From positions 18,949-82,948 of the forward strand of contig JBKCTT010000154.1 in assembly GCA_046318795.1 (NCBI GenBank): a stretch of DNA of 64,000 nucleotides. Reading direction: 5' to 3'. Position 1 is the first letter of the stretch, and the number at the start of each line of letters is the position of its first letter. The DNA is from Pirellula sp. GTDB taxonomy: Bacteria > Planctomycetota > Planctomycetia > Pirellulales > Pirellulaceae. The notes beneath the pieces are model-generated. The model searched no databases, had not been told where the DNA came from, and saw only the letters and a program-made list of their open reading frames with translations. Of this stretch, positions 22,594 to 39,508 are shown one piece after another. A program made the position numbers and the translations under genes.

Positions 22594-22667
22594 GGACGGT
22601 TAGCTCAGTTGGTTAGAGCACCACGTTGACATCGTGGGGGTCGTTGGTTCGAGTCCAATATCGTCCA
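22594..22667 (+). tRNA. tRNA-Val (anticodon GAC), CCA not encoded
   Basis: Cloverleaf GGACGGT-TA-GCTC-AGTTGGTTA-GAGC-A-CCACG-TTGACAT-CGTGG-GGGTC-GTTGG-TTCGAGT-CCAAT-ATCGTCC-A. Confidence 0.97.
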
Positions 22668-23998
22668 CCTTGACTATCTGAAAACCCTGGAAAATCAACG
22701 TTTTCCAGGGTTTTTTCGTGTCCGTCGATCTCAGTTGATACGCTGTTTACCTCAATATCACTCGGTTGTGCTTCGGATTTTGCTTCGGGTGCAGATTCCA
22801 CAGGTTCTAGCCTTTCTGGTTGCATGGTGATTGCTTGCGTGATTACGGAATCCAGATCGGTATCGGCAACTTGCCAGTAATGCTCTTGGGCAATCTGGAC
22901 CGTGTGACCACAGATCGCGGCCGCAACGTGTGGCTGAAGTGTGCGGGCAAAATCGGTACAACCGCTAGCCCTAAGGTTCTGCCACAACTTAGGCCACTGA
23001 GAGACGCCAGCCTTCACGAGAATCTTCTGTAGAGTCGTTCGGAGGTTCGTTTCACCTGACAGTCCTGGGAAAACCTCATCCCCTGGTTCGCACTCATTCC
23101 GCCACGCCGCCAGATGCTCCTCAAGAATCGGCATCATCGGTATCTTCCGCAGCTGTCGGTTCGCATGTCGTTGGTTCTTGGATGAGTCAACGATCAAAAT
23201 TCGCTTTTCCTCAAAACGGATGTGCTCCCACTTGAGCCCTGCAAGCTCGCTGGGCACTCGGAGAGCGGCAACACGAGCAAGCACTATCATGGCTTTCCAT
23301 TTCGCGTTTGGTGCGAATTTGAGAACTCGGTTGATCGTTGGAAGGGGGACGTAGTGTGTTCGCTCTTTGTTGCTTCGTACACTTGCAGCCATGCCTGCGA
23401 ACGGGTTGCGTTGAATGATCCCATCGGTAACCGCTTGGCTGAAGATCTGCTTGCAGAATCCGGTCCGACGTCGAATCGTGTTGGCCGATAACGGCTTGGC
23501 TTTGCCATCATCGTCTTTATCTCGTTTGTTGGCACTTGCCAGCCATACCCGAAACTCTCTGGCATCGTTGGCGGTGATCGAGTTCACTGCCCTGTTCTCT
23601 CCAAAAAACTCAATGAGTCGGTTCTTTGTGTGCCCCATTGCCACCTGGGAGGATTTCTTCAGATCGGAGGATCGAGCTTTGAAGTAGTTCTCAAGAAACT
23701 TACCGAGCTTCAATTCTTTTTTGGTTCGAACGACATAACCGTCGGATGGGAGCAAACCGACCTTGATGTACTTGGCTCGGTAAACAGGTTCGAGATTCGC
23801 GACCTTTTCGGCCACTCTTGGCGCCATAGAAAAACCAGAGAGCTTTGCCGAAAGAAGATCTTCGACCAAGGTCTTATGCTCAGAAGCGATCTCTTTGGTA
23901 CAGATGCCAAGTCGTATCGTCTGGCGTTTCTTGTCCTGGTCCGTGAATTGAATCCAGCGATGTTTCGGCTGACTTTTTGGCTGAACAATACAAGCCAT
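22613..23998 (-). CDS. Tyrosine recombinase/integrase (planctomycete type); 3' end reads through attL into the antisense tRNA
   Basis: Catalytic-type segments LARVAALRVPSE (R), QNLRAS (R), CGHT (H), QEHYW (Y); core-binding region 'ITANDAREFR..LSANTIRRR'; C-terminus GGRYWTRTNDPHDVNVVL is the tRNA reverse complement. Confidence 0.93.
   Translation of the reverse strand: MACIVQPKSQPKHRWIQFTDQDKKRQTIRLGICTKEIASEHKTLVEDLLSAKLSGFSMAPRVAEKVANLEPVYRAKYIKVGLLPSDGYVVRTKKELKLGKFLENYFKARSSDLKKSSQVAMGHTKNRLIEFFGENRAVNSITANDAREFRVWLASANKRDKDDDGKAKPLSANTIRRRTGFCKQIFSQAVTDGIIQRNPFAGMAASVRSNKERTHYVPLPTINRVLKFAPNAKWKAMIVLARVAALRVPSELAGLKWEHIRFEEKRILIVDSSKNQRHANRQLRKIPMMPILEEHLAAWRNECEPGDEVFPGLSGETNLRTTLQKILVKAGVSQWPKLWQNLRASGCTDFARTLQPHVAAAICGHTVQIAQEHYWQVADTDLDSVITQAITMQPERLEPVESAPEAKSEAQPSDIEVNSVSTEIDGHEKTLENVDFPGFSDSQGGRYWTRTNDPHDVNVVL
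22648..22668 (+). repeat. attL core, 21-bp direct repeat (3' end of tRNA-Val)
   Basis: TTCGAGTCCAATATCGTCCAC identical to 37932-37952. Confidence 0.95.
22681..22716 (+). terminator. Intrinsic terminator for the tRNA, supplied by the element and antisense to int coding sequence
   Basis: AAAACCCTGGAAAA-TCAACG-TTTTCCAGGGTTTT perfect stem followed by T-run. Confidence 0.8.
22769..22790 (+). repeat. Putative integrase arm-type site (tandem TGCTTCGG), left arm
   Basis: TGCTTCGGATTTTGCTTCGGGT matches 37873-37894 at 21/22 nt; 12-bp period. Confidence 0.7.
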
Positions 23999-24021
23999 AA
24001 TTTAAGCTCCCTATAAAGCTT

Positions 24022-24091
24022 ACCTATAGAAAAAAACGTGAGGCAGTTGCTATAGGTGGCAACGTTCGGCTTCGAATTTCCTAGCCTCACG
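24022..24091 (-). terminator. Branched hairpin plus U-run immediately upstream of int
   Basis: CGTGAGGC/GCCTCACG outer stem, inner GTTGC/GCAAC and TTCG/CGAA stems, followed on the minus strand by T7; competing ACCTATAG/CTATAGGT pair. Confidence 0.5.
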
Positions 24092-24107
24092 CCAACCACC
24101 TTAACAT

Positions 24108-24602
24108 TTAGGCTCGCAGTTGTGCAAGCAGTTCTTCAGATAAAAATTCCATTTTTGCCAGATGTAGCGCAGTTGCAGCGATATAGCTCCAATTAGACGT
24201 AAGCAACGCAAAACTGCGTCTTAACGCTTTATCGACGATGCTATGCTTGGCCGCGATCGTCCATTCCAACTCGCTTTTCGATAGGAAATTTGGCTTCGGA
24301 CAAGTGAATGAACAAATCAGGTCCTTGGGGTGTAAATACTCTTTGTGCTGAATCGAATAAAGCATTTGCTCAGCCACCCATCCGGACACCGAGTGCGATC
24401 TGTAGCGATCAGGCGACATTCGCCACAAATCGCGACCAGTCATATCGGCCGTGTACCTACCACTTGGTTTTTCCGTAATGAACGCGATAACTCCTCGGAC
24501 ACCATAGAGATGTGCCGACACCGCCAGGCCAGAAGCATGATAAGCGGCTGGGAATAGTCCTTGGATCTCGTTTTGCTCAGCTGGTGTAACTCTGATGACC
24601 AT
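24108..24602 (-). CDS. Hypothetical protein resembling a degenerate stand-alone peptidase M41 (FtsH-like) domain
   Basis: AYHASGLAV resembles AYHEAGHAV; C-terminal 'ALLTSNWSYIAATALHL..EFLSEE' resembles the M41 terminal helices. Confidence 0.5.
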   Translation of the reverse strand: MVIRVTPAEQNEIQGLFPAAYHASGLAVSAHLYGVRGVIAFITEKPSGRYTADMTGRDLWRMSPDRYRSHSVSGWVAEQMLYSIQHKEYLHPKDLICSFTCPKPNFLSKSELEWTIAAKHSIVDKALRRSFALLTSNWSYIAATALHLAKMEFLSEELLAQLRA

Positions 24603-24662
24603 GGTTCTCGTTAAATGATGGTAGACGAATCGGTTCGCGTGTTAGCCTTTAACGAGATCGTT

Positions 24663-25712
24663 TCAAGGGACATACTTTTGTGTCGACGTCGGTTTCGATT
24701 GCTTCTGATTCCATGCTTTTTGGCACTCATCAACAGTAAGCTTTTTGGATACGCAATCGTCAACAAATTCATTATCCGAATACTTGGAGATTCGAAACGC
24801 ATCGGCTCGTTCAACAAATCGATGAGGAGACGCCGCATAAAACGGTGATTGGAGAACACTGTCGTAAAATGCTTCGAAGTAATTCTCAAAATCGCGAACT
24901 TCATCGATCAAGCCAAGGCTTTTCGCATCAGCTGCCAAGTGTGCTCGGCCATCAGTAACCTGCTCAAGTGCGACCCCGCTTAGATTCCGACCCTGGGAGA
25001 CTGCTTCAAGAAAGAAAGCGTTCAGTCCATCAACCTGGCGTTGCAACTCCATCAAATGCGAGTCGAGAATCTTAGTTCCGAACTCCCCAGATCCTTTGTA
25101 CTCTCCGGCACGAATGACGTGCACTTTCACGCCAGCTTGTTCCATCGCCTGGGAGTAGTCCGACATTATGCAATAAGTCCCGATGCTTCCAGTAAAGCCA
25201 GTTGCATTTGAGACGATGTAATCGGCTTGTGATGCGATCCAATAAGCGGCCGAACAACATAAATCGTCAACGTAAGCAACTATTGCCTTCGATTGTCCAA
25301 ACTTCTTGACGTCGTTGGCAAGTTCACGAGTTCCAGAGACTTGGCCGCCAGGGGAGTTGATCCGCAGAAGGCATCCAAAAACCCTCGGATCCTCTAACGC
25401 AGTGTTGAGAATCGACCGAATCACACTTGAGGGACAAGTCGGAAACCATGTTGGGTACTTTGTGATCATGCCGCTAATTGTGATGAGCGCGACACCATCG
25501 ACGATGGTCGAATAGTACCGATCCGAATTCGCGGCATCGCGTTTCTTTTCCGGTGACAGCTCCGACGCGATCCTATTCAGGTCGAAGGAATGGAATTGCT
25601 GTTCCAGGATCCGAAACGATGGTTCATGCATCGAGTAGGGGCCTAGCATGTTTAAGTAGCTCGGCATTGATGCTTGGCTTTGATGAAGCTTTGATATGCG
25701 GGATGTAGTCAT
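24663..25712 (-). CDS. S49 family serine peptidase (SppA-like phage head-maturation protease)
   Basis: INSPGGQVSG, CSAAYWIAS, TGSIG, RAGEYKGSG, FLEAVSQGR; likely start near 25648. Confidence 0.9.
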   Translation of the reverse strand: MTTSRISKLHQSQASMPSYLNMLGPYSMHEPSFRILEQQFHSFDLNRIASELSPEKKRDAANSDRYYSTIVDGVALITISGMITKYPTWFPTCPSSVIRSILNTALEDPRVFGCLLRINSPGGQVSGTRELANDVKKFGQSKAIVAYVDDLCCSAAYWIASQADYIVSNATGFTGSIGTYCIMSDYSQAMEQAGVKVHVIRAGEYKGSGEFGTKILDSHLMELQRQVDGLNAFFLEAVSQGRNLSGVALEQVTDGRAHLAADAKSLGLIDEVRDFENYFEAFYDSVLQSPFYAASPHRFVERADAFRISKYSDNEFVDDCVSKKLTVDECQKAWNQKQSKPTSTQKYVP

Positions 25713-25783
25713 GATATAGTCCTAATGGATTTTAGTTTTGATGGAGTCAGCTGTCGTTATTTGCTTCCAGGGGAAAGAAGTGA

Positions 25784-26692
25784 TTACAAGAATCCGAGAG
25801 TGTAAAAATTCATCGGAATGTATCGTTCAAACTCAAGCCAGTTGTGTTTGATTTCATCGTTGTTTTCCACTTGAAAGCCATCTACGTCTAAAGCTTGTGG
25901 GGTTGCGACTTGTGCTTTATGTCCATCCCCACATGGTACGATTGAAAACGGAACGACACCGCCAGATGTTGGAGGACCTGGTAATCGCTTCTTACAATAA
26001 AAACCTTGATGAAAAACACGAGCAAACCATGCCTTGTCAGGGGTTGTTCGATAAGGAATTCGAAACTTGACCTGTAGCGTACCTCGCCAGTAACCAGAAC
26101 CACCATAGGCATTACCGGCTACGCTTTGCGCTTCAAGCATGGCCACGCGACCGGTGCCAGCAGGCCAACCGGCAAAGGGTGTTGAATTTACTGCTCTCAG
26201 ATACGCGGCTTGAGTGTAGGAATTCCAGTTAGCAAAGTTCCTTCTGACTGTCAAAACAATATCTGGAAACTCTGCTTTAACTCCTCGGATTCGTTCACCG
26301 GCTTTTGTTTGAATTCGCTTTCCGTGAATGTCTTCGTCAATTTCCTGTTCTGCCAACTGACCTCTCCAATCAACTGTTGGTGGGGTTGTCAATGGGTTGT
26401 TGACGTTCCGGCCTGGTGCGACCTCGCCCCGATATTCAACGGTTGCAATGGTCATAATTGGCGAAACTTGATCCATTCGAGCCCGGCCAGCCAATACAAA
26501 ATTGGTGCCAGGATAAACGGCCCCAACTTCTGGAAGTCCGGGAGCAAAATACTTATCAAGCTCCTTAGTTCCGACGTCATGCAATATTTGGTATGACTCG
26601 GTGAACATTACATCAATTCGCCGGAAGTTGTCCTGGGAGTCGGCACTAGATCCAGCTCGGCTCCACATCAGTAACGCGGGTTGTACAGCCAT
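25784..26692 (-). CDS. Phage-related structural protein, possibly distal-tail/baseplate-like
   Basis: 302 aa beta-rich protein downstream of the tape-measure-like gene; assignment by position and composition only. Confidence 0.4.
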   Translation of the reverse strand: MAVQPALLMWSRAGSSADSQDNFRRIDVMFTESYQILHDVGTKELDKYFAPGLPEVGAVYPGTNFVLAGRARMDQVSPIMTIATVEYRGEVAPGRNVNNPLTTPPTVDWRGQLAEQEIDEDIHGKRIQTKAGERIRGVKAEFPDIVLTVRRNFANWNSYTQAAYLRAVNSTPFAGWPAGTGRVAMLEAQSVAGNAYGGSGYWRGTLQVKFRIPYRTTPDKAWFARVFHQGFYCKKRLPGPPTSGGVVPFSIVPCGDGHKAQVATPQALDVDGFQVENNDEIKHNWLEFERYIPMNFYTLGFL

Positions 26693-26728
26693 CTTGATTC
26701 CTTTCTTGTAATTCGGTGTAACGATGTG

Positions 26729-26995
26729 TTAGTAAGTTGCAGGATGGTAAGCGTTTCGCCTGTTCTCTTCGTCCTGAATTTGCTGGATTCGGATTAGTAG
26801 CGATCGCGTGAGAAGAATCTTTACACGATCAAATTCGGCCGCTTGTATCTCTGGTGACTCAGTGTGGTCATATTTCAAAGTCCGGCTTTGTGTGACTTGT
26901 GGGAACGATGCCAGCCTCGCATCAATAAATATCTGGACTAGTTCGTCAATAATTTTAACGTTCTCGGCAATATCAATAAGATTTAAGTTTTTCAT
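26729..26995 (-). CDS. Small hypothetical protein (AT-rich)
   Basis: 88 aa ORF, tightly coupled to upstream ORF. Confidence 0.55.
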   Translation of the reverse strand: MKNLNLIDIAENVKIIDELVQIFIDARLASFPQVTQSRTLKYDHTESPEIQAAEFDRVKILLTRSLLIRIQQIQDEENRRNAYHPATY

Positions 26996-26997
26996 TT

Positions 26998-27288
26998 TTA
27001 TGTTTTGATGTTGTTTAGTTCTTGTTTGTGACTTGAAACGTAGTTCCTAATTTTTTGAATCGATGCCTCAGCTCGTCGCTTAATGTCTGGCATTCGCTCC
27101 ATGATTTCTTGACATTGCTCTTTTGTTTTTCCCTCAGGATCCGTTGCCTCAAATTCGTCCATGATGCCAACAAATTCATTAAGCAGGTTTTGACGTTCAT
27201 CTTTTAAATGCGGATAGCCGTTGAGAATTAGTAAACGCAAACACTTAATGACTACACTAACGCTAGTTTCAAATCGATCTGGGCTCAT
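26998..27288 (-). CDS. Small hypothetical helical protein (AT-rich)
   Basis: 96 aa ORF; start overlaps the stop of the tape-measure-like gene. Confidence 0.55.
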   Translation of the reverse strand: MSPDRFETSVSVVIKCLRLLILNGYPHLKDERQNLLNEFVGIMDEFEATDPEGKTKEQCQEIMERMPDIKRRAEASIQKIRNYVSSHKQELNNIKT

Positions 27289-28901
27289 GGATAGGTCCAG
27301 CTTCCTACGGGTACGATTGCGACAGCTCGGTCCTCAGCAGACCTTGGAGGTAATGGGTTTTCAGCAAGCTTGACCAACTTGTCCATTTGATCAGCTATGT
27401 GTTTTGCATAGTCAGCAATTTTCCGTTCTGGTGACTCAACAGTATCGCCACGGACCATAATCCGAGACTCAAAAGCCCCAAGAGCTTTAATCTGTTGATC
27501 TTGAAGGTTGAGATCCTCTGTTTGTTTCAGCATAAGATTGACCTTCGTTTCAATCGGGTTCGTCCTATACCTCATTCGGTCCGTTACCGCATCCATTCGT
27601 CTTTGGAACTTCTCATCGAATTCACTTGTGATGCCCCAGGCGTAATCATTCATCATTGCTTCTGTTGCTTTTTCTAGCTCGGAAACAGCTCTCTCACCAA
27701 CTTCCGGAAGGGCTTCGGTTGCAGACTCAAATCCCCGAAAGAGATTCTCACCCATCGTGTTGCCCATTTCCCAAACGAACTGATCAAAGCCCTGATCCTT
27801 CCATCCACCCATGATGTAATCAATCGTCAGCTTAAATGCGTTGGCAATATTCTGATTGAAGTTACTCCAAACATATGCAGCCGAAATCACCATGTCTTGA
27901 AGAATGTTGACGAATTGTCTCGCAAACCAAATGGTGTAGGCGGGAATGACCTCGGCGAACGTATGCTGAACTATCGATTCGATGCGAATGAATGAAAGCA
28001 AGAAACTTGATGACACAAGATCGAGAACGTCTGTCAGTCGGTGCAATGTAGTCTCGACGAAAGTAAAAGATCCGACGATTCCTTCAGCCATCTGCTTAGA
28101 GTTGTTTTCAACGTCTACTGACATTTCTGCAAAGTAGGTTCGGAAATCATCGATCGCGGGTATTAAAGCTTGATTGATGACCTCGACAACAACTACCAGG
28201 CCTTCCAGTGCCAACTGCTTGAAAGGTGCCACCATTTGGCCAATAGTTGTCGAAAGATTCTCAGCTTCGACCGACAACCTAGCAAAAATATCAAGCGCAC
28301 TATTCGCCTTTTGCGTCTGGCCTTCTATACCCTGACTAGCGAATGCTGAAACAGCGGCAAGCTTATCCGATTCGGAAGTAAGATCCCGCATTCCGGGGAT
28401 AAGATACTCAAGAGCCCCGAAAGAACCTTCGGTTGCGGCCCGCACCTTTTGAAACGCTTCCGAAAGTGGGATTTCTAAGGCATAAGAGAGGCCTACAGTA
28501 GCTCGTGTAACTTCGTCAATCTGAGATGGATCGAATGACTCCTGGGCGGATCGCATTACTTGGCGGATCTGACCTTCATCAATGTTGGTTGCCAGTTCGA
28601 TTTGACGCGCACTACCCTTTAGCGTGTCATTGAGCCGTTTTTCCATTTCCAGCTTGAGAAACTTGTCGGCAGATTCATTCAAGTAGGTGAACATTGATTC
28701 ACCGGCTTTGACAGCTGCATAAGCTCCGGCCAGGGCAGCGAGAGCCCCAGTTACTCCACCCAGTGACAACTGCAGTGAGCTTGATTTCTTATTGACTGAA
28801 TCCATCGAGTCACCAAGTTGCTTGGTCGACTCATTGAATTGATTTAGGATCTTTGTCGCTTCATCGCGAGCGCGAATCACAAATTCCATGCTTTCCGACA
28901 T
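27285..28901 (-). CDS. Tail tape-measure-like protein
   Basis: N-terminus 'EFVIRARDEATKIL' then 'LGGVTGALAALAGAYAAVKAG' hydrophobic stretch, helical body with periodic W/F, C-terminal 'SPERKIADYAK' style; 538 aa. Confidence 0.7.
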   Translation of the reverse strand: MSESMEFVIRARDEATKILNQFNESTKQLGDSMDSVNKKSSSLQLSLGGVTGALAALAGAYAAVKAGESMFTYLNESADKFLKLEMEKRLNDTLKGSARQIELATNIDEGQIRQVMRSAQESFDPSQIDEVTRATVGLSYALEIPLSEAFQKVRAATEGSFGALEYLIPGMRDLTSESDKLAAVSAFASQGIEGQTQKANSALDIFARLSVEAENLSTTIGQMVAPFKQLALEGLVVVVEVINQALIPAIDDFRTYFAEMSVDVENNSKQMAEGIVGSFTFVETTLHRLTDVLDLVSSSFLLSFIRIESIVQHTFAEVIPAYTIWFARQFVNILQDMVISAAYVWSNFNQNIANAFKLTIDYIMGGWKDQGFDQFVWEMGNTMGENLFRGFESATEALPEVGERAVSELEKATEAMMNDYAWGITSEFDEKFQRRMDAVTDRMRYRTNPIETKVNLMLKQTEDLNLQDQQIKALGAFESRIMVRGDTVESPERKIADYAKHIADQMDKLVKLAENPLPPRSAEDRAVAIVPVGSWTYP

Positions 28902-28928
28902 TTGTTTGACTCCTTCAGTGGGGGATGT

Positions 28929-29780
28929 TTATTTTGTTGCGATCGCGATCAGCAGCTGACCGTCGACGATCATGTACGGGATATCCAGTGCGATCGTGGC
29001 AGAGATACAGTCGCCTATTGTTGCTGCGTCAATTGTAGCGTTAACAAGTCGGTGGACATGAGAAATAGGTGCACTAATCTGTTCAGATCGCGGCATCGCC
29101 TCGAGAACTTTTCGGACCTTGTGTGCGATCAGGAAATCCGGTGGGGGGCCGATAAAACGTTGTTCAGTGAATAGCCCCTCCGAGTCGAAGTAGATCTTCC
29201 GTTTCCCATCCAGGATGAAAGGGTATCGGCCTCGGAGGTCGTTCGCATCGACGACGAAGTCGCCAGCACATGGGTGCACTGGTTGCCGGCCGTCGATCCG
29301 CTCCAAGAATGCTCGGTGCCACTTACGGGAAACGTTCAGATTGCAGTTTACCGAGCCCCATACCGGATTTACCGTGAGACCAGCAGCGAACGCGGCCGCG
29401 ATCATCGAACCATTGCTGATGTAATCAAACAATCTGGATCGTGTCAGATCGTGCTTGAGTCGATACGACGAAATCCAAGGCCTCTGGATCCGCGGCACAA
29501 CTTGCAACGTATCGGCCAAGCTCGCCACGACACTGGCGTCCGGTGCTTCGCGAATGAGTTTCTTGCCGGTCAAGAGTCCGTCGCGATCCACGAACAACAC
29601 GTCACCACTCGGCGCGACGATTCGCGGATAGGGGCAGGCCTCATCCGTCAGCATTGAATCGCGAACGGATGAGAATGGTTGGCCCTGGTAGACGTTAGAC
29701 GTTTCGGTCCTAACTTTGTGAATGGTCATTGGAAAAAACCTTACGAATGGGAATTGGAGAACTAGCAGCGACACATTCAC
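28929..29780 (-). CDS. Hypothetical phage/plasmid protein with an internal duplicated domain
   Basis: Two related halves (YPRIV..LFVDRDGLLT..VPR / YPFIL..IYFDSEGLFT..MPR); 'SSYRLKH...YISNGSMIAAA' motif; likely start ATG 29729. Confidence 0.65.
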   Translation of the reverse strand: MNVSLLVLQFPFVRFFPMTIHKVRTETSNVYQGQPFSSVRDSMLTDEACPYPRIVAPSGDVLFVDRDGLLTGKKLIREAPDASVVASLADTLQVVPRIQRPWISSYRLKHDLTRSRLFDYISNGSMIAAAFAAGLTVNPVWGSVNCNLNVSRKWHRAFLERIDGRQPVHPCAGDFVVDANDLRGRYPFILDGKRKIYFDSEGLFTEQRFIGPPPDFLIAHKVRKVLEAMPRSEQISAPISHVHRLVNATIDAATIGDCISATIALDIPYMIVDGQLLIAIATK

Positions 29781-29829
29781 TGCTTGAAACGCAACTTGGG
29801 GGGGCGGTTGTGGATGAACAAACTCGATT

Positions 29830-30259
29830 CGAGTCGCACAAGAATTTTGAAAAATCGAATTTCAGAAAATCGAAATTGCAAATTTGAAAAACGAAAAATG
29901 AAATTTGAGATCTGGACCGGAAAGGCTTCCGTCCCCCATTTCGCATTCTTCGTCCTCTGCGTCCCCCCATTCCACCAATGAAAACATTGGTTAAAACGCA
30001 TTTTTTGACGTCGGGGGACGCAGGGTGCGCTACTTTCTCTATGTAACCGGTCCGTAGGTTTATTCTCCCTACTCTCTCTACTGATTTACCGCCTATTAAA
30101 TCTCTTCTATCTACTTTCTTATTTCTTTCGTCCCCTTCGTCCCCTAAAAGAAAAAGAAGGAAGAAAGATAAGGAAATAGAAGGATTTGGAAGGAAAACGG
30201 GGGACGCAGGGGGGACGGAAAGCCACGAAAAGGGGACGCTGGACAGGAAATGGGGGACG
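29830..30259. other. Putative replication origin of the element: nine GGGGACG iterons in both orientations with AT-rich tracts
   Basis: CGTCCCC at 29930, 29960, 30129, 30138; GGGGACG at 30014, 30200, 30211, 30232, 30253; directly downstream of the primase-helicase stop. Confidence 0.7.
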
Positions 30260-32725
30260 CTAAGCATTTCTTCTCGCCTCCGTTTTCAATTTTTCCAATT
30301 CCAAAACTTGTTCTGTTTTTCGTTTTTCAATTTTCAAATCAAGATCTTTGCAGGTTTCTGCAGAGTCGCTGTTTTCAGAAATGGCAAGGAAGGACCTGCC
30401 ATGCTTCCGAGACGGGTTTCTTTGGAGACGTGTAAGCAGTCCGCATCCAATCAAGCGATCGCACAGCTGGGCAGCGGAACGACCGTTGAATCGCTCTCCT
30501 TGAGCCTGGGAGACCATTTCGGCCAGAGTGTCGAGTTGGACAATGACTCGATAGGGCGGCTTGTATTCGTAGCTCTCGAGCCAACTGTCGACCGTCGCTT
30601 GAATCGTGTTAGCTGACTCGGCATCGCCATCATTGATTTGTTCGCGGAATGCAAGAAGCTCGGCAACAGTGGTTGGATCTTCAAGTCGACTAAGGATCTC
30701 CTTTTGCCAGATCGCATGTCGGCTATAAAGGGGAAACTCCTTTGTTGGTAACGAGAAGAATCTCTTCACATCGGCAATCACATCCCAGTGGTGATTCTCA
30801 ATAAACGATTGAACCTCGTTTATCCAGTTTGGTTTTCTCTCTGGTTGCTTTAGCGTGATCGACACCAACCTCTGCGCCATGTCGCGACTAAAAGTCGCTG
30901 AATTGAATGTGACGAACAGAACGTATCTGTTTGGACGATCGCAGTTGCCAAAATACATCCGATGACCTGACAAGCTTGTCGACGTCATAAGTGCTTCGAT
31001 AGTAGCCGACGAAAACAAATTGGTTTTGATGTTGTCGAGCAAGATCGAGCGACAACTGGAATCACCATTCAGAAGTCGCTTCATGATCTCATCACGCTTG
31101 GCTGTTTGGTCAAAATCGATCGATCCGCCAGTCAGCTTAGTGATCAAATTTACAGCGGTCGTTTTCCCACTTCCCTGACCTTGCAACGAGCCGAAATGGA
31201 ATCCAGGTCGGTGACCTAACGGACCTCCCCAGAACGTTGTAGCGATCGCAGCTCGCAACAGTTCTCTATCCATGGGGGTCGCTGGTGAGAAGTAGTCTAA
31301 AAACTTTTCTAAGTGCTCTCCGGATCCTTCCTTGATCTCTTGATGGACATAGTAAGTCCTCGGCATAGCTGGGAAATGTGGATAAAGCTCCACGCTGTCA
31401 AATGATTCGAGAGCGCTGGAGTGACATAGAGAATCAAAAAACTCATCTCGAGAAACGAAACTAGGACCGGTTTTCCAAGTGACATTAAAGCGTTCACGGA
31501 TCCACCCGAATAATTGAGAGTGCTTGCGAAATGACCTATAGTTTCCAGCGTCAATCGTGAACAGTTCGCCAGCGTTTCTCTTGGGGAAACCTTGATTGAG
31601 CTTGATAATTGTTTGGACGATCTTTGGCAAAGATTCAGCCACCTCTTTGACTTCCTCGACACCATTGGCATCTTTAACTCTTTCCAGCTTGAAGTTGCGA
31701 ATGACGCGACTGTTTCGAATCTCTTCGTCATACTTTTTTGCGTCAAAAAGTTCACTCCCTTCTGCGATCGCAACAAGCTTTTCAAAAGTACCGCCTTCGA
31801 CGTAGAAGTCTCGTAAGTCCTTGCCCTTTTTTTCAACGATCTCAAATGGAAGTAAGACGTTGCGAGTGGGAGCAATATCCGAGAGCTTTCGACACCACCG
31901 GCCGGCCCCAACTTGTCCAGCGGAATCTGCATCGTGAACGACCCAACACTCTTCTGGCTTGAGTGCTTCAAGCATCGGAATGAACCAGGGGGACACCTTT
32001 CTGTCTGATGTGGCTCCATCAGAGTTAGACCATATCAAGAAACGCTTTCCGTTTCTTGGAGTCGCCTCGGTGACACTGGCAAGAAAATCACTAGCGCCTT
32101 CAACCTTAATGCAAATCAGATTTGGAGTGAGCTTGCCAGCAGTAAGCAGTTCGCGGTCTTCGAGTGTTAAAAAAACGCCGTTTCGATCGTATGGGGAATC
32201 TTGCGAAACTTTCGAGTAGACTACCTTACCCGAGACTGGATTCCCCATCTTGCGTTTACTCTTGTCAAACGTCGCTGGATGCTTCGAACCTGTTACTGGA
32301 AAGATGTTCCAGTTGCAGAGAGACAAATTGCGATGACCGTAAATTGGCAGCCCAAAGACTCCCCAAGAAGACCTAAGTCCCCTTGGATACCAGGTTGCGT
32401 ACTTTATGCCAGCCAGTTCAAACGCTTCCGGTTTTAATGGGGGCTTTCTGGACAAAAATTGCAACTGAAGTTTGTGAGGAACTTCTGGCTTGATATCCAG
32501 TTTCACAGGCTTGTGGACGCAGTAACCATCCGACGCGATTTCTTCACGTTTCAGCGGACTGTCGGAATACTTAGGTGCACTTATCTGTTTTATTGAATTA
32601 GAATTCAGGGTGGAAGCCTGTTCCGTCATTCCTGACGAGTTCTGTTCCGTTTCACTTCCACCCTGAATGTTTTCAATTGCCGAATCGGCAAGATCAATAG
32701 TTATGTTTGACTTAATGCATTCCAT
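30260..32725 (-). CDS. Primase-helicase (Toprim + P-loop NTPase), P4 alpha/PICI Pri-Rep-like
   Basis: Toprim VEGASDF and HDADSAG (DxD), 'KGKDLRDF'; Walker A GSGKTT, Walker B ILLDNI; 821 aa. Confidence 0.88.
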   Translation of the reverse strand: MECIKSNITIDLADSAIENIQGGSETEQNSSGMTEQASTLNSNSIKQISAPKYSDSPLKREEIASDGYCVHKPVKLDIKPEVPHKLQLQFLSRKPPLKPEAFELAGIKYATWYPRGLRSSWGVFGLPIYGHRNLSLCNWNIFPVTGSKHPATFDKSKRKMGNPVSGKVVYSKVSQDSPYDRNGVFLTLEDRELLTAGKLTPNLICIKVEGASDFLASVTEATPRNGKRFLIWSNSDGATSDRKVSPWFIPMLEALKPEECWVVHDADSAGQVGAGRWCRKLSDIAPTRNVLLPFEIVEKKGKDLRDFYVEGGTFEKLVAIAEGSELFDAKKYDEEIRNSRVIRNFKLERVKDANGVEEVKEVAESLPKIVQTIIKLNQGFPKRNAGELFTIDAGNYRSFRKHSQLFGWIRERFNVTWKTGPSFVSRDEFFDSLCHSSALESFDSVELYPHFPAMPRTYYVHQEIKEGSGEHLEKFLDYFSPATPMDRELLRAAIATTFWGGPLGHRPGFHFGSLQGQGSGKTTAVNLITKLTGGSIDFDQTAKRDEIMKRLLNGDSSCRSILLDNIKTNLFSSATIEALMTSTSLSGHRMYFGNCDRPNRYVLFVTFNSATFSRDMAQRLVSITLKQPERKPNWINEVQSFIENHHWDVIADVKRFFSLPTKEFPLYSRHAIWQKEILSRLEDPTTVAELLAFREQINDGDAESANTIQATVDSWLESYEYKPPYRVIVQLDTLAEMVSQAQGERFNGRSAAQLCDRLIGCGLLTRLQRNPSRKHGRSFLAISENSDSAETCKDLDLKIEKRKTEQVLELEKLKTEARRNA

Positions 32726-32840
32726 CGCGATAATTCATTGTGCATGAGAACTAACAAGTCGCTTGAAGCAACTTGGAAACGTTGGGTCAAGTCGGTTGGG
32801 GATGCCGGCTTGACCCTTTTTTTATTGGCCGATCTCGCTT

Positions 32841-33830
32841 CTAAATCTCAAGATCTGCCACTGTTGCCGCTTCGACCTTGGCCCTGCGAGTCGGCATGGA
32901 TCCCACAGCCCTGGAAGCGACCTGTTCAGCTTGGAGTCTCTTGGCCTCTGAATCCTTATCTGATGCGTCTACCACTTCAGCAGGTGCAACCGTTGGCTCG
33001 CTTGGCAGCTCGGTGGGCAGCGGTTCAAGATCCCGACCGACTAGCGCATGCTCAAGGTTTCTACGTTGAACTTCAAGTTGCAGATCGAGAAGCCTTCCTT
33101 CGTGGTAGTTGCGTTGCAGCTCAGCGATTACTTCAGGAAGCCTTGCTTCAAGCTTTTTTCGGTCCGCAGGTAATAGTTCGCCACCACCGGACATTGTCAT
33201 GTTGCGATGCAATGACTGCTTGATGTAATTAAGTTCTTTCCTGCCAGATTCCTCAGATGCAAGTTGAGCTTTCTTCTTTTCGATGACGCGATCGTAAACG
33301 CCTTTTTCTGACCTATACTCTTCAGATGGTTGGTATCTTTCTAACATCCTCTGGGCGCCCATAGCGTCTTCAAGCTCGTATCGCGTCTGTCGAGCTTTTC
33401 GATCAAGACGAACATACTCGTCTTCCATCTCCTTTTCTGTTTTCTTCCAATGCTCCTTGTAAGCGTTTCTCTCCTGAAGTTCTTGCTGTTCACGCATTTT
33501 CAGGAACGGAATCTGAGCAGTTTTTCGTGACCATTCAGGCGACGAAAAGTGTATCTCAATCTCGTTTTGTAGACGTTCTGGCGTCCATTCAGAATCTTTC
33601 AACAGTCGAGCAATCTTTTCAGAATTGACTTCGCGACTCTCCCGACGGGCGGATTTGATTTCGGCAGTAATCTCTTTACGAGCATCCTGTTTAATTCGCT
33701 CGGAAGCTTCCGTAATGCTATTTGCGATGTTGCTCGCGATTTTCACGCTGGTTTGAGACAATAAACTCATATGACAATTCCTTGAGGAAGTTAGATTTTG
33801 ATTTGGAAAAACTGGGCGTGTCCTGGGCAC
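32841..33830 (-). CDS. Coiled-coil hypothetical protein
   Basis: E/K/R-rich heptad-like helices; likely start ATG 33770 (MSLLSQ). Confidence 0.7.
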   Translation of the reverse strand: MPRTRPVFPNQNLTSSRNCHMSLLSQTSVKIASNIANSITEASERIKQDARKEITAEIKSARRESREVNSEKIARLLKDSEWTPERLQNEIEIHFSSPEWSRKTAQIPFLKMREQQELQERNAYKEHWKKTEKEMEDEYVRLDRKARQTRYELEDAMGAQRMLERYQPSEEYRSEKGVYDRVIEKKKAQLASEESGRKELNYIKQSLHRNMTMSGGGELLPADRKKLEARLPEVIAELQRNYHEGRLLDLQLEVQRRNLEHALVGRDLEPLPTELPSEPTVAPAEVVDASDKDSEAKRLQAEQVASRAVGSMPTRRAKVEAATVADLEI

Positions 33831-33844
33831 CAGGGAGGGAATAC

Positions 33845-34318
33845 TTACCGAACGTTCGCAGCTGCGACGAGCTTACGACGAACGTTTGGATATTTCTTGG
33901 CGACGATGCAAGCGGCACGAATAGCATCGCACTTAGATCGCTTCATCTCCGAGCGGATGTTCTGTTGCCAGAGGGACTGCAAAGCCTTCAGCTCCTCCTC
34001 TGGGTCTTCTGATTTGGATCGCTTGGACTTCGCCTTTCGCTTGGTGACAGGCTGTTCCACCTCATCATCATCAAGATCTTCATCGAGTTCTTCGTCATCG
34101 ATCTCGGTGTCATCCGAATCAAGATCTTCTTCAAGATCCTCATCCTGGACCTTCTTCTTGGGGTTGGCAGCTCGGACAACTGCAGCGCGAAGTTCTGGAT
34201 GCAGCTTCGACGCTAAAGACGCAGCTCTGATTGGATCCCCCTTCGCAGCTGGCAGTTGATCGCGAATTGCTTTCTGCCAGTCGGCTCTTGCCTCGGATAG
34301 ACTCATATTCTTCTTCAT
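33845..34318 (-). CDS. Hypothetical protein: two repeated helical domains joined by an acidic linker (scaffold-like)
   Basis: WQKAIR..DPIRAA..LHPELRAAVVRAAN vs WQQNIR..DAIRAA..KYPNVRRKLVAAAN; D/E-rich linker. Confidence 0.75.
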   Translation of the reverse strand: MKKNMSLSEARADWQKAIRDQLPAAKGDPIRAASLASKLHPELRAAVVRAANPKKKVQDEDLEEDLDSDDTEIDDEELDEDLDDDEVEQPVTKRKAKSKRSKSEDPEEELKALQSLWQQNIRSEMKRSKCDAIRAACIVAKKYPNVRRKLVAAANVR

Positions 34319-34383
34319 TGGAATTCCCTTTCACGGAATTGGTTGATATGTGGGACAAGTGATTCCTGCCCCTAAATGTGTTG

Positions 34384-34803
34384 TTATGTCAATTCGAGCT
34401 TCGAATTGACTTGGTCGAGAACTATCTGGAATCCGCGTACAACGCCGCGTTCCCAAGCTTCGATCTTTAATGGTGTGACCAGTTGTGTAGTCGGTTCATA
34501 AAGCATGTTGACGATGCTTGGCGGTACGTCGGTACTTAGGAAGACGTACAAATCGAACCCCTCTTCGTCGAAATCAGCAGCTTCGACAACTCGGTCCAAA
34601 TCTGCGTAGGTCATGTGCTCCTTCGAAAATTCGATGCCAGCTTCGACCCCTTGCTCCTTGATCGCTGCCAGGTGCTCTCGACCCTGGGAAACAAGTCGGC
34701 CGATGGTTTTCTCATTGGCAATTACTATGCCCATGTTCATATCCTTACTGAGAAGATAAAGAGACTCATCGAGACCGATGAGTCGGAAGATACGCCAGGC
34801 CAA
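34384..34803 (-). CDS. Hypothetical protein
   Basis: 139 aa ORF in the element's gene run; likely start ATG 34737. Confidence 0.6.
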   Translation of the reverse strand: MAWRIFRLIGLDESLYLLSKDMNMGIVIANEKTIGRLVSQGREHLAAIKEQGVEAGIEFSKEHMTYADLDRVVEAADFDEEGFDLYVFLSTDVPPSIVNMLYEPTTQLVTPLKIEAWERGVVRGFQIVLDQVNSKLELT

Positions 34804-35022
34804 TTAGCCTTGGCAAAGATGCTCAACGTTGTTGCCGCGATCGATTCGACTCGCTGCGAACATGGCGTCAATGTCGGCGCTGTCGATCCGAACTAAACGA
34901 CCGACCTTGCTTGCCGGAAGCTCCCCTTGAGAGATGAGGTTGCGAACATGGACTTTCGAACAGTTCAGAACCTTTGCCGTTTGCTCAATGGAGAGTTTTT
35001 CCGAGACGATTTGATGCTTCAT
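34804..35022 (-). CDS. Excisionase-family helix-turn-helix protein (HTH_17/Xis-like)
   Basis: LSIEQTAKVLNCSKVHVRNLISQGELPASKVGRLVRIDSADID. Confidence 0.88.
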   Translation of the reverse strand: MKHQIVSEKLSIEQTAKVLNCSKVHVRNLISQGELPASKVGRLVRIDSADIDAMFAASRIDRGNNVEHLCQG

Positions 35023-35121
35023 TTGTTGATCCCCTTATTGGAAATGCTGACTAAGGCGGTGTGCCTTCGATGTCAACAAATGTTAGGGATCAAGCAGGTT
35101 CAATCTACATGCTTCGCAACA

Positions 35122-35247
35122 GGTGGGAATCTTGGTGGGGCAAAATAGGTGGGAGAGTTTTCGTTGCTACTGAGTAAACCAGATGCTAAGGAGTGCAATC
35201 AAAAAATCTCGTTTTTTTCTTTAGGTGGGAAAGTTGGTGGGAGAGTT
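35122..35247. promoter_or_regulatory. Array of GGTGGG-core 12-bp direct repeats upstream of the xis-like gene
   Basis: GGTGGGAGAGTT 35148 and 35236, GGTGGGAAAGTT 35224, GGTGGGAATCTT 35122, GGTGGGGCAAAA 35134. Confidence 0.55.
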
Positions 35248-35265
35248 GGCCCTGGTTTCCACTAC

Positions 35266-36057
35266 CTATTTTTGATCTTTCCAAGCTAAGAACTGGATCA
35301 TGAAGTCGCAGAACTCAACGGGGCTTGAAGTAAAACTGCTCGTGCGTTGCCTTCGATAGACCTCTTCGAGATTCCCAAGCTTTCGACCAAACTGCTTTGT
35401 TAGTGCTTCCTCACTCATGCTTGGCGGAAGAGTGCCTAAGTTCTTTTGATGCAGCTCTTTTGCAGACTCTTCTCGGCTGCGATTCCCGTTATCAGGTTTT
35501 TGATTTACGTAATGAACAATTCCACATTGAATCCATTCAGACTGTTTAGACCAGTTTTTACGAAACCTCTGGAAGTGATCTTCGAGAGATTTGTCGAATG
35601 GTTTAGGTTTGTTTTCAAGCCTCGATTCTATGGCTACTGCTACTCCTTCGAAACCCGCTGCAATGTACGCCATGCGATCTGGATCAAACACCGGTCCAGC
35701 ATAGTCATAGAAGATGGGTATGAAGCGAGATTCAGCATTGAACTCGCCCGGGATGTAGGTCTTGGCGTCCAGCAAATCGGGCGATGTATCGACGTCGACT
35801 AGGATCTCTTGGAAGTCGCGAACGTAATGTTCCGTCTGATAACCGACCGCGATGTCCATCTTCTTACCAAAGGGAATATCGGCTAACTCTGGAAGCAAAC
35901 CGAGACTGACAGCTTCCTCGAAATGATGTTCGATTGTCAAAAGATAATCGGATGAGATGTGAGAAGTTGCAGATTCGAATCTTCTCGCATGAGCATAAAA
36001 ACGCTTCACCAATACGCTAGCGCGTTCCCTGACCGATACTTCGCTCGGCATGAGCAT
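35266..36057 (-). CDS. Hypothetical protein (candidate element regulator)
   Basis: 263 aa ORF; possible C-terminal HTH-like segment; no recognisable family. Confidence 0.65.
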   Translation of the reverse strand: MLMPSEVSVRERASVLVKRFYAHARRFESATSHISSDYLLTIEHHFEEAVSLGLLPELADIPFGKKMDIAVGYQTEHYVRDFQEILVDVDTSPDLLDAKTYIPGEFNAESRFIPIFYDYAGPVFDPDRMAYIAAGFEGVAVAIESRLENKPKPFDKSLEDHFQRFRKNWSKQSEWIQCGIVHYVNQKPDNGNRSREESAKELHQKNLGTLPPSMSEEALTKQFGRKLGNLEEVYRRQRTSSFTSSPVEFCDFMIQFLAWKDQK

Positions 36058-36229
36058 AACAGACTCCTTGTGTGATCAAAGGTTGGTTGCCAGCCCTCTG
36101 CCCACAAGGAGTGCAAAGCAGAATGCTGGCAACCATTCGGGACCGTCGCCCCTACCTAAATTTGTATCATCCGTCGACGACACAGAACAAAATCGTACCG
36201 GATCCGATCGAATCGGAAAATCAAAAAAT

Positions 36230-36490
36230 TTGCGTGCGAAAAAATCTCGCAACGAAAACGAAAATTCGAAAAACGAGAATTGTAAAAAATCTCTGTTTTC
36301 AATTCTAAATTTGTAAAAAATCTCAATTGTGAGACAAAATGTCACAGTTTTTTCATAAACCTAACTCTTTCGACGAAACGCGAGCCTATGCGACCGCATC
36401 GATTTAGGCAAAGGCTGGAAGGGACCCAGACTTGCAAGCGTAGGCGTTAGTTTCGGTGCCTCTCGCGTCGATTTAGACCCTACCCCCTAT
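36230..36490 (-). other. Candidate cos/pac-like packaging site
   Basis: Minus strand GGGTCCCTTCC (36417-36427) resembles the lambda cosQ region GGGTCCTTTCC; palindrome ATGCGACCGCAT 36388-36399; AAAAAATCTC boxes at 36239, 36284, 36315. Confidence 0.35.
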
Positions 36491-36736
36491 CGTTTGTTGC
36501 TCAGCTTGGCGGATGCGTTAAACGTGATTTTAGGGGCTCTTTGTGATGTGGAATTAACCTTGGTAGTCGTTTTTTGTGCTCAAAAACATAATTGGATTGA
36601 GTGCCAGGCCTTCAGGCCGTGTCTCTGGATCCAGCGACGATCTATCGAGCGACAACCGATCGCTTTAAGGAAAAAAAGAGGCGATAGGTTTCTCACCCAC
36701 TACCGCCCCCCATGCCAAAGCGTTGACGATGTGACC

Positions 36737-37186
36737 TTACGCCACCGCTTTGGCAAATTTTGTTGATAGAATCGGCTCGGATTGTTGCGACTCGATCAGT
36801 CCTTGGTCAGCTGCGAATCGTGCCAGGCCTCGCATGGCTTCCAATCGCAGCGATCGAGCCTTGGCCGATGCCAATTCACCTTTGACTCGAGCCATGAAGA
36901 GAGCGATGGTATCGACGTCCAGATCGTTCAGATTTGGTGTACGTTGAAGCATCTCTTCGAGAACGAAGATTGCGTCGCGATACGCTTCGACCGTCGAGTC
37001 TGACATGACCATGCCGTATCGACCGACATACATCTCCAATAGCTCAATAAGGCTCATCTCCTCGCGTTGTTGCTGCATTCGATTCGCCTGGTTGACTCTC
37101 ATGCCAAGCCACTTGTGCAACTTCTCGGAATCCTCGATCGATAGGCCAGCTGCGTCGATCATCAATTGGATATCTCTCAGTTCCAT
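36737..37186 (-). CDS. Stand-alone integrase core-binding (SAM-like) domain protein
   Basis: LIELLEMYV..MSDSTVEAYRDAI..NLNDLDVDTIALFM..KARSLRLEAMRGLARFAADQGLI; no catalytic domain follows. Confidence 0.65.
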   Translation of the reverse strand: MELRDIQLMIDAAGLSIEDSEKLHKWLGMRVNQANRMQQQREEMSLIELLEMYVGRYGMVMSDSTVEAYRDAIFVLEEMLQRTPNLNDLDVDTIALFMARVKGELASAKARSLRLEAMRGLARFAADQGLIESQQSEPILSTKFAKAVA

Positions 37187-37188
37187 GA

Positions 37189-37500
37189 TTACTCAACCTC
37201 GCTTTCGATTTGCAAGCGGCTGATTTCTGGGTGGGTCTCGGTGATCGAATCCCAGCGATCCTGAAACGATCCTTGCTGCAACGCTGCAGATATATGTTCG
37301 TCAATCCACTCACCACAAGATGCTTCAACAAACTGTTGCTTTTCGTCGTAACCTACCGCAGCTCGGAGGTGACAAGCGACGATACCGAGTTCGGTCGGAT
37401 CTTTAACTAGACCTCGATCAATGGCATCAGCAGCATTTCGGAAAAACGCCGCCAGCATCGCTCGGTCGTTCTCGGTAAAAATTCGTTCTAGCTTTGACAT
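37189..37500 (-). CDS. Hypothetical protein
   Basis: 103 aa ORF, 2 bp from the downstream ORF. Confidence 0.6.
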   Translation of the reverse strand: MSKLERIFTENDRAMLAAFFRNAADAIDRGLVKDPTELGIVACHLRAAVGYDEKQQFVEASCGEWIDEHISAALQQGSFQDRWDSITETHPEISRLQIESEVE

Positions 37501-37608
37501 GATAAAAACCCTTGTTGTCTGTTGGGGATGTAAAGCTTGGCGATGTAACAGACCGACACCGCTTCGCTGGGCTGCCAGGGGAAAAAGAATCCCTCGGCTT
37601 GTGCGGTG

Positions 37609-37932
37609 TTATTTGGGCTTTCTGGGATGACTCGTTGTCGCTGCGACCTCGGATCGCTTCCGACGTCTACGCTTGGGCCCGGTGCCGACGTCGACAATCT
37701 GGGCAATCATGGCTCGTTGAGTGCTTGTGTATCGTGTCCACCGTTTGGCCAGGCGGGTGACAATGCGTGTCAGCTCAGGATCCGAGATGCGAACGACCAA
37801 TTCGTCGTTGGAGTGGGCGGTGCTATGAAGAGACTTGCCGGTGATTGAGCAAATTTGAGGTTTCGTGCCGACTGCTTCGGAATTTGCTTCGGGTCGAATT
37901 TTTACGCAAATTCCCTGGGAATCTGAGCCTTT
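37609..37932 (-). CDS. Orphan integrase C-terminal extension (in frame with int across attP)
   Basis: Frame is open from the attR core (37932) to the stop at 37609; offset 15,284 keeps the int frame; contains DPELTRIVTRLAKRW...RAMIAQIV. Confidence 0.6.
   Translation of the reverse strand, partial: KGSDSQGICVKIRPEANSEAVGTKPQICSITGKSLHSTAHSNDELVVRISDPELTRIVTRLAKRWTRYTSTQRAMIAQIVDVGTGPKRRRRKRSEVAATTSHPRKPK
37873..37894 (+). repeat. Putative integrase arm-type site, right arm
   Basis: TGCTTCGGAATTTGCTTCGGGT, 21/22 identical to 22769-22790. Confidence 0.7.
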
Positions 37933-37952
37933 TCGAGTCCAATATCGTCCAC
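37932..37952 (+). repeat. attR core, 21-bp direct repeat of the tRNA-Val 3' end
   Basis: TTCGAGTCCAATATCGTCCAC identical to 22648-22668. Confidence 0.95.
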
Positions 37953-38116: not shown

Positions 38117-38143
38117 CGCCCTTTTTTCTTTAGGAGTTACACC

Positions 38144-39491: not shown

Positions 39492-39508
39492 TTGGCTTCA
39501 ATCGAAAA

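Follow-up and report, generated by a model that had tools for sequence, protein, structure and literature searches.

A probable phage satellite at a tRNA-Val gene of Pirellula with a protease, a candidate scaffold mimic and tail-module genes

Is a 15.3-kb island that occupies a planctomycete tRNA gene and carries phage virion genes a satellite, the debris of a prophage, or something else? This question is raised by a 64,000-nt stretch of Pirellula sp. (GCA_046318795.1, contig JBKCTT010000154.1, positions 18,949-82,948 of the forward strand), which we call the window and to which all coordinates below refer. An earlier note on this DNA had read the island as a satellite rather than prophage debris. 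Our analysis points the same way: the element probably represents an as yet undescribed family of integrated phage satellites in Pirellulaceae, and we infer that it is intact and mobilisable. As expected of a satellite, it has its own functions for integration (an integrase and att sites) and for replication (a primase-type protein and iterons), while its gene content predicts that it is unable to build a virion alone. The four morphogenetic homologues that it encodes, namely a tail-less S49 protease, a double-motif protein, a tape-measure-family protein and the protein whose gene comes after the tape measure in phages, trace to one siphophage lineage, with complete prophages in the same family and in some cases in the same genus. 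Since its non-phage gene order is conserved in small elements, none of its genes is visibly broken and related copies occur at three tRNAs, we do not regard it as a decaying prophage.

Integration, regulation and replication

The only tRNA gene in the window, tRNA-Val(GAC) (22594-22669, plus strand; ARAGORN, Rfam tRNA 66.6 bits), is the integration target and is intact, its last 21 nt being the att core. This core, TTCGAGTCCAATATCGTCCAC, forms a perfect direct repeat at 22648-22668 (attL) and 37932-37952 (attR), and the distance set by its two copies defines a unit of 15,284 bp, in agreement with the island and the 21-bp repeats that the earlier note had described. The core is corroborated by the complete genome of the same-genus Pirellulaceae bacterium SH467 (G020), in which a mosaic element of 16,063 bp occupies the same tRNA-Val between the same 21-bp sequences; window positions 37874-37952 share 77% identity with the corresponding end of that element. 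The arm repeats noted before were also recovered, as a 22-nt near-repeat composed of two TGCTTCGG units at 22769-22790 in the left arm and 37873-37894 in the right arm, with 21 of 22 positions identical between the arms. At ~100 bp inward from attL and ~40 bp inward from attR, these candidate sites have the layout expected of arm-type integrase sites, and they are predicted to be bound by the integrase.

That the element is an insertion follows from its closest relative genome (G021), which has a matching left flank (79% identity over 2.8 kb) and an intact tRNA-Val, but whose next 17 kb beyond that tRNA encode nothing homologous to the element proteins. The G+C content of the island equals that of its flanks. 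The relatives carry the names Pirellula sp. or Pirellulaceae, which agrees with the planctomycete-like host that had been suggested. Every open reading frame (ORF) with a homologue or domain match lies on the minus strand, and Pfam and PHROG scans of the element ORFs found no plus-strand gene with support. Thus, for all supported genes, both the single-strand layout and the lack of the divergent cI/stl arrangement typical of phage-inducible chromosomal islands (PICIs) stand as previously described.

The integrase (461 aa, 22613-23998, minus strand) would be classed as a tyrosine recombinase, since its catalytic domain (PF00589, 31.7 bits with a cut-off of 27.1) and its N-terminal SAM-like domain (PF13102, 37.7 bits with a cut-off of 22.3) both score above the Pfam thresholds; it also matches phrog_1 (1e-31). 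Its ORF crosses attL and ends within tRNA-Val, and on the joined circle (22613-23998 plus 37611-37952) it would encode 557 aa. The integrases of the SH467 element and of a second relative, L012, terminate in identical tRNA-encoded residues. Further integrase relatives were found at 23 loci (L032-L054), many of them in metagenome-assembled genomes (MAGs) of Pirellula or Pirellulaceae, with 34-74% identity over the best-matching segment. Nearly all of these loci hold unrelated cargo, so that this integrase family serves many island types; following it as a route to more family members was therefore abandoned.

The Xis-like helix-turn-helix (HTH) protein of the earlier note corresponds to a 72-aa HTH_17 (AlpA/excisionase-like) protein (34804-35022, minus strand; PF12728, 2e-13) that matches excisionase PHROGs. 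In the gap upstream of its gene (35130-35247) there are two 30-nt repeats, 77% identical, with GGTGGGAGAGTT; these may be operator or promoter elements.

The 821-aa replication protein (30260-32725, minus strand) combines a primase-like N-domain with a P-loop C-domain. It has only three database homologues (37-41% identity), all in Pirellula MAGs and all within other integrase elements that carry different cargo. Direct searches of the protein against Pfam, PHROGs, NCBIfam and the PDB gave no match, and the assignment comes from profile-profile comparison: with hhalign, residues 3-369 aligned with residues 4-358 of D5-type phage primase-helicases (probability 99.95%, E 2.4e-38). An alignment of the replication proteins revealed conserved EGxSD, DxDxAG (Toprim-like by eye), GQGxGKT (Walker A) and LLDNIK motifs, and weak matches were seen to DUF5906 in two of four family members and to Toprim_2 in the homologues. 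The earlier designation of this protein as a primase-helicase therefore holds for the primase-type N-terminal 370 residues, but only in part for the C-terminal half, which has a Walker A motif and matches no helicase family.

Domain fusions were compared across L001, L003, L004, L005, L012 and window 30260-32725. The same primase-like N-domain is joined to three types of NTPase in these loci (D5_N/DUF5906, AAA_25 and an orphan P-loop), which indicates modular exchange inside the replication gene.

Directly downstream of the replication gene lies an iteron array (29930-30259) that represents the candidate replication origin. GGGGACG occurs 14 times in the window, where 5.6 copies are expected, and nine of these copies fall, in both orientations, within these 330 bp; the array reported earlier is thereby borne out. 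An A/T-rich stretch (~29830-29910) adjoins the iterons, and related elements have repeats of their own at the same place after the replication gene. The plus strand carries, in antisense orientation to the replication-gene leader, a promoter-like site and then a strong terminator with a 13-bp stem (32707-32826). L012 has a hairpin in the corresponding position and orientation, and L004 and L005 have a two-way terminator there. A counter-transcript may control replication.

Head and tail genes and the phages that share them

The S49 protease that the earlier note had listed is a 349-aa prohead-type serine protease (24663-25712, minus strand) with matches to PF01343 (3e-34; 118.8 bits with a cut-off of 24.9) and to the head maturation protease family phrog_53 (2e-57). 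Both its domain score and its conserved active-site blocks place it in the prohead type of Peptidase S49. With the 473-aa protease of L007, a complete prophage of Pirellulaceae bacterium SH449, it shares 46% identity, and the SAAYW (serine), SPGG, GSIGTY and KG blocks are conserved between the two enzymes. In the phage S49 proteins (473-487 aa), the protease domain leads into a coiled coil and a long acidic linker, and ~45 residues that include AKWNRLVDRELASCKGDRQKATSKVAKRYPGLRAKLVASAN form the C-terminal segment. The element protease has neither the coiled coil nor the acidic linker nor the motif, and this is general among the satellite proteases (349-393 aa), which keep the protease blocks and end before the scaffold-like tail.

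The missing motif is found in another element protein. The 157-aa acidic protein (33845-34318, minus strand) has the architecture motif, acidic linker, motif, and both repeats match the C-terminus of the phage S49 protease/scaffold proteins. This double-motif finding is new in the present analysis. The counterpart in L012 has one copy followed by an acidic linker, and that in SH467 has a coiled coil, an acidic linker and the motif. A hidden Markov model of the motif gave one further match outside its training set, at the C-terminus of a 369-aa protein of prophage L029 that has no detected S49 match and sits between the portal gene and the cement and capsid genes, which is the position of a scaffold. 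CpmB of the Staphylococcus aureus pathogenicity island SaPI1 shares the C-terminal motif of the 80alpha scaffold, competes for its site on the capsid protein and forces the formation of small capsids (PMC5644958). By analogy, the 157-aa protein is a candidate CpmB-like internal scaffold mimic that would redirect capsids. As such it would be a natural example of a capsid-redirecting satellite protein derived from the scaffold of its helper.

Two further genes belong to the tail module of phages. The 302-aa protein (25784-26692, minus strand) is encoded in phages directly after the tape measure. It has 30 database homologues, whose contexts are complete phages or prophages or small integrase elements, and all 80 of the 80 IMG/VR contigs that carry the family are phage-type. 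It shares 68% identity with the 306-aa protein of L007, whose gene comes after the one, for 533 aa, that occupies the tape-measure position. AlphaFold gave the 302-aa protein an all-beta model (pLDDT 77), which matches only uncharacterised proteins of tailed phages. We also considered this protein as a hidden capsid protein; this idea was rejected, as the all-beta model shows no HK97 fold and has no PDB match.

The second gene encodes a 538-aa protein (27285-28901, minus strand), which we assign with moderate confidence to the tape-measure family. The earlier description as tape-measure-like is supported by family and position, but the protein's own PHROG matches are weak: it hits six families with E values of 2e-4 to 9e-3, five of them annotated as tape measure. 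Its family comprises 556 cluster representatives, mostly of 480-660 aa, and six of 40 sampled members matched PF06791 (TMP_2; best 3e-7). The protein matches (E 9e-18) the L030 protein encoded directly upstream of the 302-family gene, which is the tape-measure position, and its homologue in the SH467 element (34% identity) adjoins a 302-like gene. Homologues were also present in 24 of the 80 IMG/VR phage contigs that carry the 302 family.

Complete phages or prophages with the 302 family are L007, L013, L014, L008, L010 and L027-L030. L007, L013 and L014 have a regular phage order: a lambda-type portal (Phage_portal_2), the S49 protease (473 aa), a cement-like protein, the major head protein (phrog_1005, 1e-43), the neck (phrog_27) and then the tail. 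The tail module starts with a ~530-aa protein and the 306-aa homologue, followed by further tail genes, and a D5-type primase is encoded on the other strand. The remaining prophage loci share the tail module, and some differ in the head module; L008, for instance, has a protease-capsid fusion. L027 and L028, both in the same-genus genome G008, have the tail module (314-aa protein, tape measure and 302-family protein) in common with the L007 type, and differ in the head module, with a portal that is only 24% identical and no S49 match. Because these two share the tail but not the head with L007-type prophages, head and tail modules recombine among the likely helpers.

No other virion function was recognised. 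Among the element proteins there was no Pfam, PHROG or NCBIfam match to a capsid, portal, terminase, tail tube, holin or lysin, and, apart from the protease, no head, portal or terminase match in Pfam or PHROG, the 283-, 329-, 263- and 139-aa ORFs being assessed by sequence only. Homologues of the L007 portal and major head protein were found neither in the element nor elsewhere in its own genome. The capsid, portal or terminase that the earlier note had named as grounds for giving up the satellite reading were thus not found. These results bear on the idea that the element is a tiny autonomous virus or a capsid-forming island, with capsid, portal and terminase too divergent to be recognised. 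This idea could draw on the five ORFs of 139-329 aa without an assignable function, and on L001, where a relative of the replication gene adjoins a 661-aa Phage_capsid_4 protein. However, only the tape-measure-family and replication proteins are long enough for a portal or large terminase, nothing in the element matches the portal or capsid protein of the related phages, and the one modelled candidate, the 302-aa protein, is all-beta and not of the HK97 type. We consider such a virus very improbable.

If the element is instead a satellite, as we favour, a phage of the L007-type lineage could serve as its helper. Upon infection by, or induction of, such a phage, the element would excise and replicate from its iterons. 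The 157-aa protein would bind the helper capsid protein via the borrowed scaffold motif and, together with the satellite protease, redirect assembly to small capsids that fit ~15 kb, as CpmB does. The tape measure and the 302-aa protein would either join the assembly of satellite-particle tails or poison helper tails. A bolder version of this scheme, which we put forward only tentatively, is that the satellite manipulates both ends of the virion, with a split protease-scaffold at the head, its own tape measure and tail-tip initiator at the tail, and half-size relatives packaged as dimers. If true, satellite particles would receive self-specified tails, or helper tails would be spoiled.

Related elements and competing explanations

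One of the closest relatives of the element, L012, is also located at tRNA-Val(GAC) and is syntenic with it from end to end. Its genes encode, in order, a 279-aa protein, HTH_17, proteins of 196 and 127 aa, a cement protein (126), a 317-aa protein and a D5-type replication protein (864), followed by proteins of 78, 133, 168, 104 and 302 aa, S49 (389), the 164-aa protein and the integrase (458). Identities to the window element are 71% for the integrase, 55% for the 164-aa protein, 50% for the protease, 72% for the 302-aa protein, 50% for the 88-aa protein, 40% for the 283-aa protein, 34% for the replication N-domain, 30% for the 329-aa protein, 54% for the 157-aa protein and 41% for the 263-aa protein. 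A 14.6-kb JGI metagenome contig has the same gene order as these two elements, and both L012 and the JGI contig carry D5_N/DUF5906 replication proteins. The SH467 element encodes an integrase (53% identity), a 164-like protein, the tape-measure-like protein, the 302-like protein, a cement protein and a motif protein; no S49 was found in it.

A tblastn search of the element's own genome revealed two further elements. L004 (C231:1-7800), at tRNA-His, spans 7,653 bp and is bounded by perfect 45-bp repeats. It encodes an integrase, a 190-aa ORF, a DUF1580 HTH, a 245-aa homologue of the 329-aa protein and a 747-aa protein in which the same primase-like N-domain is joined to an AAA_25 helicase (3e-32), followed by AATGTGCCGGTC repeats, S49 (41% identity) and a 168-aa protein (30% identity to the 164-aa protein). 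L005 (C47, 43294-49665), at tRNA-Arg, is a second L004-type element that is cut by the contig end; it has the integrase, DUF1580 HTH, 245-aa protein, primase-AAA_25 and S49, and the 168-aa protein is present only in L004. L004 is very nearly half as long as the window element (15,284 bp), a ratio that would fit dimer packaging in the same capsid. From the gene content shared by the window element, L012, SH467, L004 and L005, a recurring family core can be drawn that consists of an integrase, an HTH protein, the 245/329-aa protein, a primase-type protein with repeats, the 164/168-aa protein and, except in SH467, S49. In the long forms this core is joined by the 302-aa protein, by scaffold-motif and cement proteins and, in some of them, by the tape measure.

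On a separate contig of the same genome, C250:8517-8582 holds a 49-nt 3' fragment of tRNA-Val with the same att core, and after it the terminator sequence found behind the intact tRNA-Val of G021. Matches to HTH_17 and to a primase zinc ribbon lie 5 kb away (C250:13730-14214). The locus could mark the distal end of an array of islands, but also a strain variant or a further, fourth element.

The comparison of gene orders bears on the possibility that the element is a decaying remnant, i.e. a deletion derivative of an L007-type prophage that retained the integrase and a few structural genes. The similarity of the 302-aa protein (68%) and the protease (46%) to proteins of complete prophages would fit this, as would the loss of the zinc ribbon from the replication protein and a protease shorter than that of L012. 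However, the element order (302-aa protein, protease, 164-aa protein, integrase) is not that of the phages (portal, protease, and further on tape measure and 306-aa protein), and it is conserved in L012 and the JGI contig. None of the genes was seen to be interrupted by a frameshift or a stop codon, consistent with the unbroken main ORFs reported before. The regulatory and replication genes have no prophage counterpart except a distant primase domain, and a single genome contains three related elements at three different tRNAs. L012, the JGI contig and the SH467 element, the closest relatives, are small integrase elements and not full prophages, and the prophages have a different, normal phage order. 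A remnant thus seems improbable, and the choice of a satellite over prophage debris stands.

Conservation outside the genes is relevant to a further alternative. Within the 680-bp non-coding gap at 36058-36736 lies a conserved block (36392-36475) that contains a GGGTCCCT stretch and is a candidate cis-acting site for packaging or regulation. Compared with L012, 72% of 174 nt are identical, and compared with L004, 81% of 52 nt, despite the fact that the L004 proteins are just 30-45% identical to those of the element. That this block is conserved in elements that have diverged elsewhere suggests a cis site used in trans, and in the proposed mechanism this block would be the best candidate for the site recognised by the packaging enzyme of the helper. 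It was not found in the compared phage loci, which lack the terminase-proximal region, and a cos or pac role is unproven. The block was also considered as a structured RNA, an idea that found neither covariation support nor an Rfam match.

Alternatively, the element might be an integrative island that is not packaged and spreads otherwise, with its phage-derived genes acting as dominant-negative decoys, in other words an anti-phage defence island. Satellites and prophages are known to carry blockers of tail assembly, and in PICIs such tail-assembly-inhibition genes sit beside the primase gene (PMC11364771), in the same stretch where the element has its tape-measure block: the 538-aa gene is absent from L012 and located in the variable region right after the replication gene and iterons. 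Moreover, neither a packaging gene nor a proven packaging site was found. On the other hand, autonomous replication with iterons and sizes of ~7.6, 15.3 and 16 kb fit a packaged element better, the conserved non-coding block suggests a cis site used in trans, and PADLOC gave no defence-system match of note in the element. Interference and satellite spread are also compatible, and known satellites do both. We therefore regard a pure defence island as unlikely, if less so than a prophage remnant.

Several observations weigh against the satellite reading. The element's own assembly, which is 96% complete, contains no L007-type helper prophage, and the helper is for this reason hypothetical. No satellite-type relative was found among the IMG/VR viral contigs, and the 164-aa marker occurs in only three of 401 genomes of the order. 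The 283-, 329-, 263- and 139-aa ORFs have no family match, and neither these nor the 164-aa ORF could be assigned a function; a small terminase or an unusual capsid protein may conceivably be among them. The tape-measure assignment rests on family-level and positional evidence. Finally, the C-terminal half of the replication protein gave no hhalign alignment with known helicases, and the N-terminal zinc ribbon that is present in all three close homologues is absent from this protein; primase activity may therefore be impaired.

The remaining genes are of less certain role. Nearest to attR there are ORF calls of 72 aa (37488-37706) and 103 aa (37189-37500), followed by a 149-aa protein (36737-37186) whose sole domain is an integrase SAM-like (core-binding) domain (PF02899, 5e-7), with a terminator-like site after its gene (36698-36679); these and the following ORFs are all on the minus strand. 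A 263-aa ORF (35266-36057; 41% identity to the L012 279-aa protein, no family or PDB match) is the first gene of the long operon. The 139-aa ORF (34384-34803) is located between the HTH_17 and 157-aa genes. The 329-aa protein (32841-33830) is charged and probably coiled-coil; its gene is always upstream of the replication gene, with homologues in L004, L005 and L012 (26-30% identity). Beyond the iterons there are a 283-aa ORF with an internal repeat (28929-29780; 40% identity to the L012 168-aa protein, no family or PDB match), a 96-aa ORF (26998-27288) without significant family match and an 88-aa ORF (26729-26995; 50% identity in L012). The 164-aa protein (24108-24602) has only four database homologues and is always encoded beside the integrase or protease in this element family. 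By eye it had been taken for a degenerate FtsH/M41 peptidase core; a PDB profile search was empty, its AlphaFold model (pLDDT 52) gave only noise with Foldseek, and the idea is unsupported.

Right of attR, window positions 37953-44500 include a pilin/secretin/chaperone-like operon. Except for a 151-nt piece (window ~44522-44672), this region was not found downstream of the G021 tRNA-Val, and it may be a second inserted or variable region adjoining the element.

Comparison with known satellites

Most of the phage satellites described so far come from Proteobacteria and Firmicutes, and a few from Actinobacteria (PMC10085698). A full-text literature search pairing 'phage satellite' with Planctomycetes returned no paper, in line with the earlier statement that no satellite is described in Planctomycetota; the element is most likely the first satellite kind proposed for this phylum and, if the proposed mechanism is true, part of its first satellite-helper system. 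Two of the strains involved, SH467 with its related element at the same tRNA-Val and SH449 with the candidate helper-type prophage L007, appear to be cultured isolates, judging from their strain-style names and complete genome records.

With P4-like satellites the element shares a tRNA-directed integrase, an AlpA-like HTH protein, a large primase-helicase-type protein with an origin nearby, a unidirectional gene layout and proteins predicted to act on the capsid, and the D5_N/DUF5906 proteins of L012 and the JGI contig resemble P4 alpha. Relative to P4 alpha, the primase N-domain of the window element is homologous, whereas the zinc ribbon is absent and the helicase half is not recognisably D5-type, with a Walker A motif present. 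Unlike P4-like satellites, it has a protease and tail genes, and for Sid, Psu, Delta and Epsilon, searches of Pfam, PHROG and NCBIfam brought up none of the element ORFs.

A prohead serine protease and other phage-derived head genes are also found in capsid-forming PICIs (cf-PICIs; PMC10085698). These, however, encode their own capsid protein, portal, connectors and small terminase, while the element has just the protease and the scaffold-motif protein. Tail genes are regarded as a phage trait, not one of satellites (PMC10085698), and the only satellite-encoded tape measures reported, quite recently, are those of the EPIPs of Mycolicibacterium aichiense and the proposed TMP-like protein of PLE11 (PMC12822802), a feature that the element appears to share. 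The serine integrase, small terminase, adaptor, stopper, scaffold and capsid proteins of EPIPs were not found in the element, and the hosts are unrelated. PICMIs, VEIMEs and tycheposons are small marine satellites that likewise integrate at tRNAs or other specific sites and pair a tyrosine integrase with a replicase of the primase type. For PICMIs, packaging takes the form of concatemers (PMC10803314); they have no capsid-remodelling genes, and no sequence relationship with the element was detected.

The resemblance to PICIs and SaPIs extends to the size of ~15 kb, the integrase at one end, the AlpA/Xis-type HTH protein and the primase-type replication protein with an adjacent repeat origin. 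The element differs in having its genes on one strand and no divergent Stl/cI-like master repressor beside int, and no homologue of terS, ppi, cpmA/B or rpp was detected; the 157-aa protein would be the functional analogue. As in SaPI1, a small protein bears the C-terminal capsid-binding motif of the helper scaffold (PMC5644958), but in the element this motif is borrowed from an S49 protease/scaffold fusion and present twice. The element further differs from SaPI1 and other PICIs by its own protease, its two tail genes and its planctomycete host. By gene content it thus belongs to none of the PICI, P4-like, cf-PICI or EPIP classes, yet it appears to work like a PICI- or P4-type satellite, and the way in which its family combines a protease, a candidate scaffold mimic and tail genes suggests that helpers are hijacked by a new strategy.

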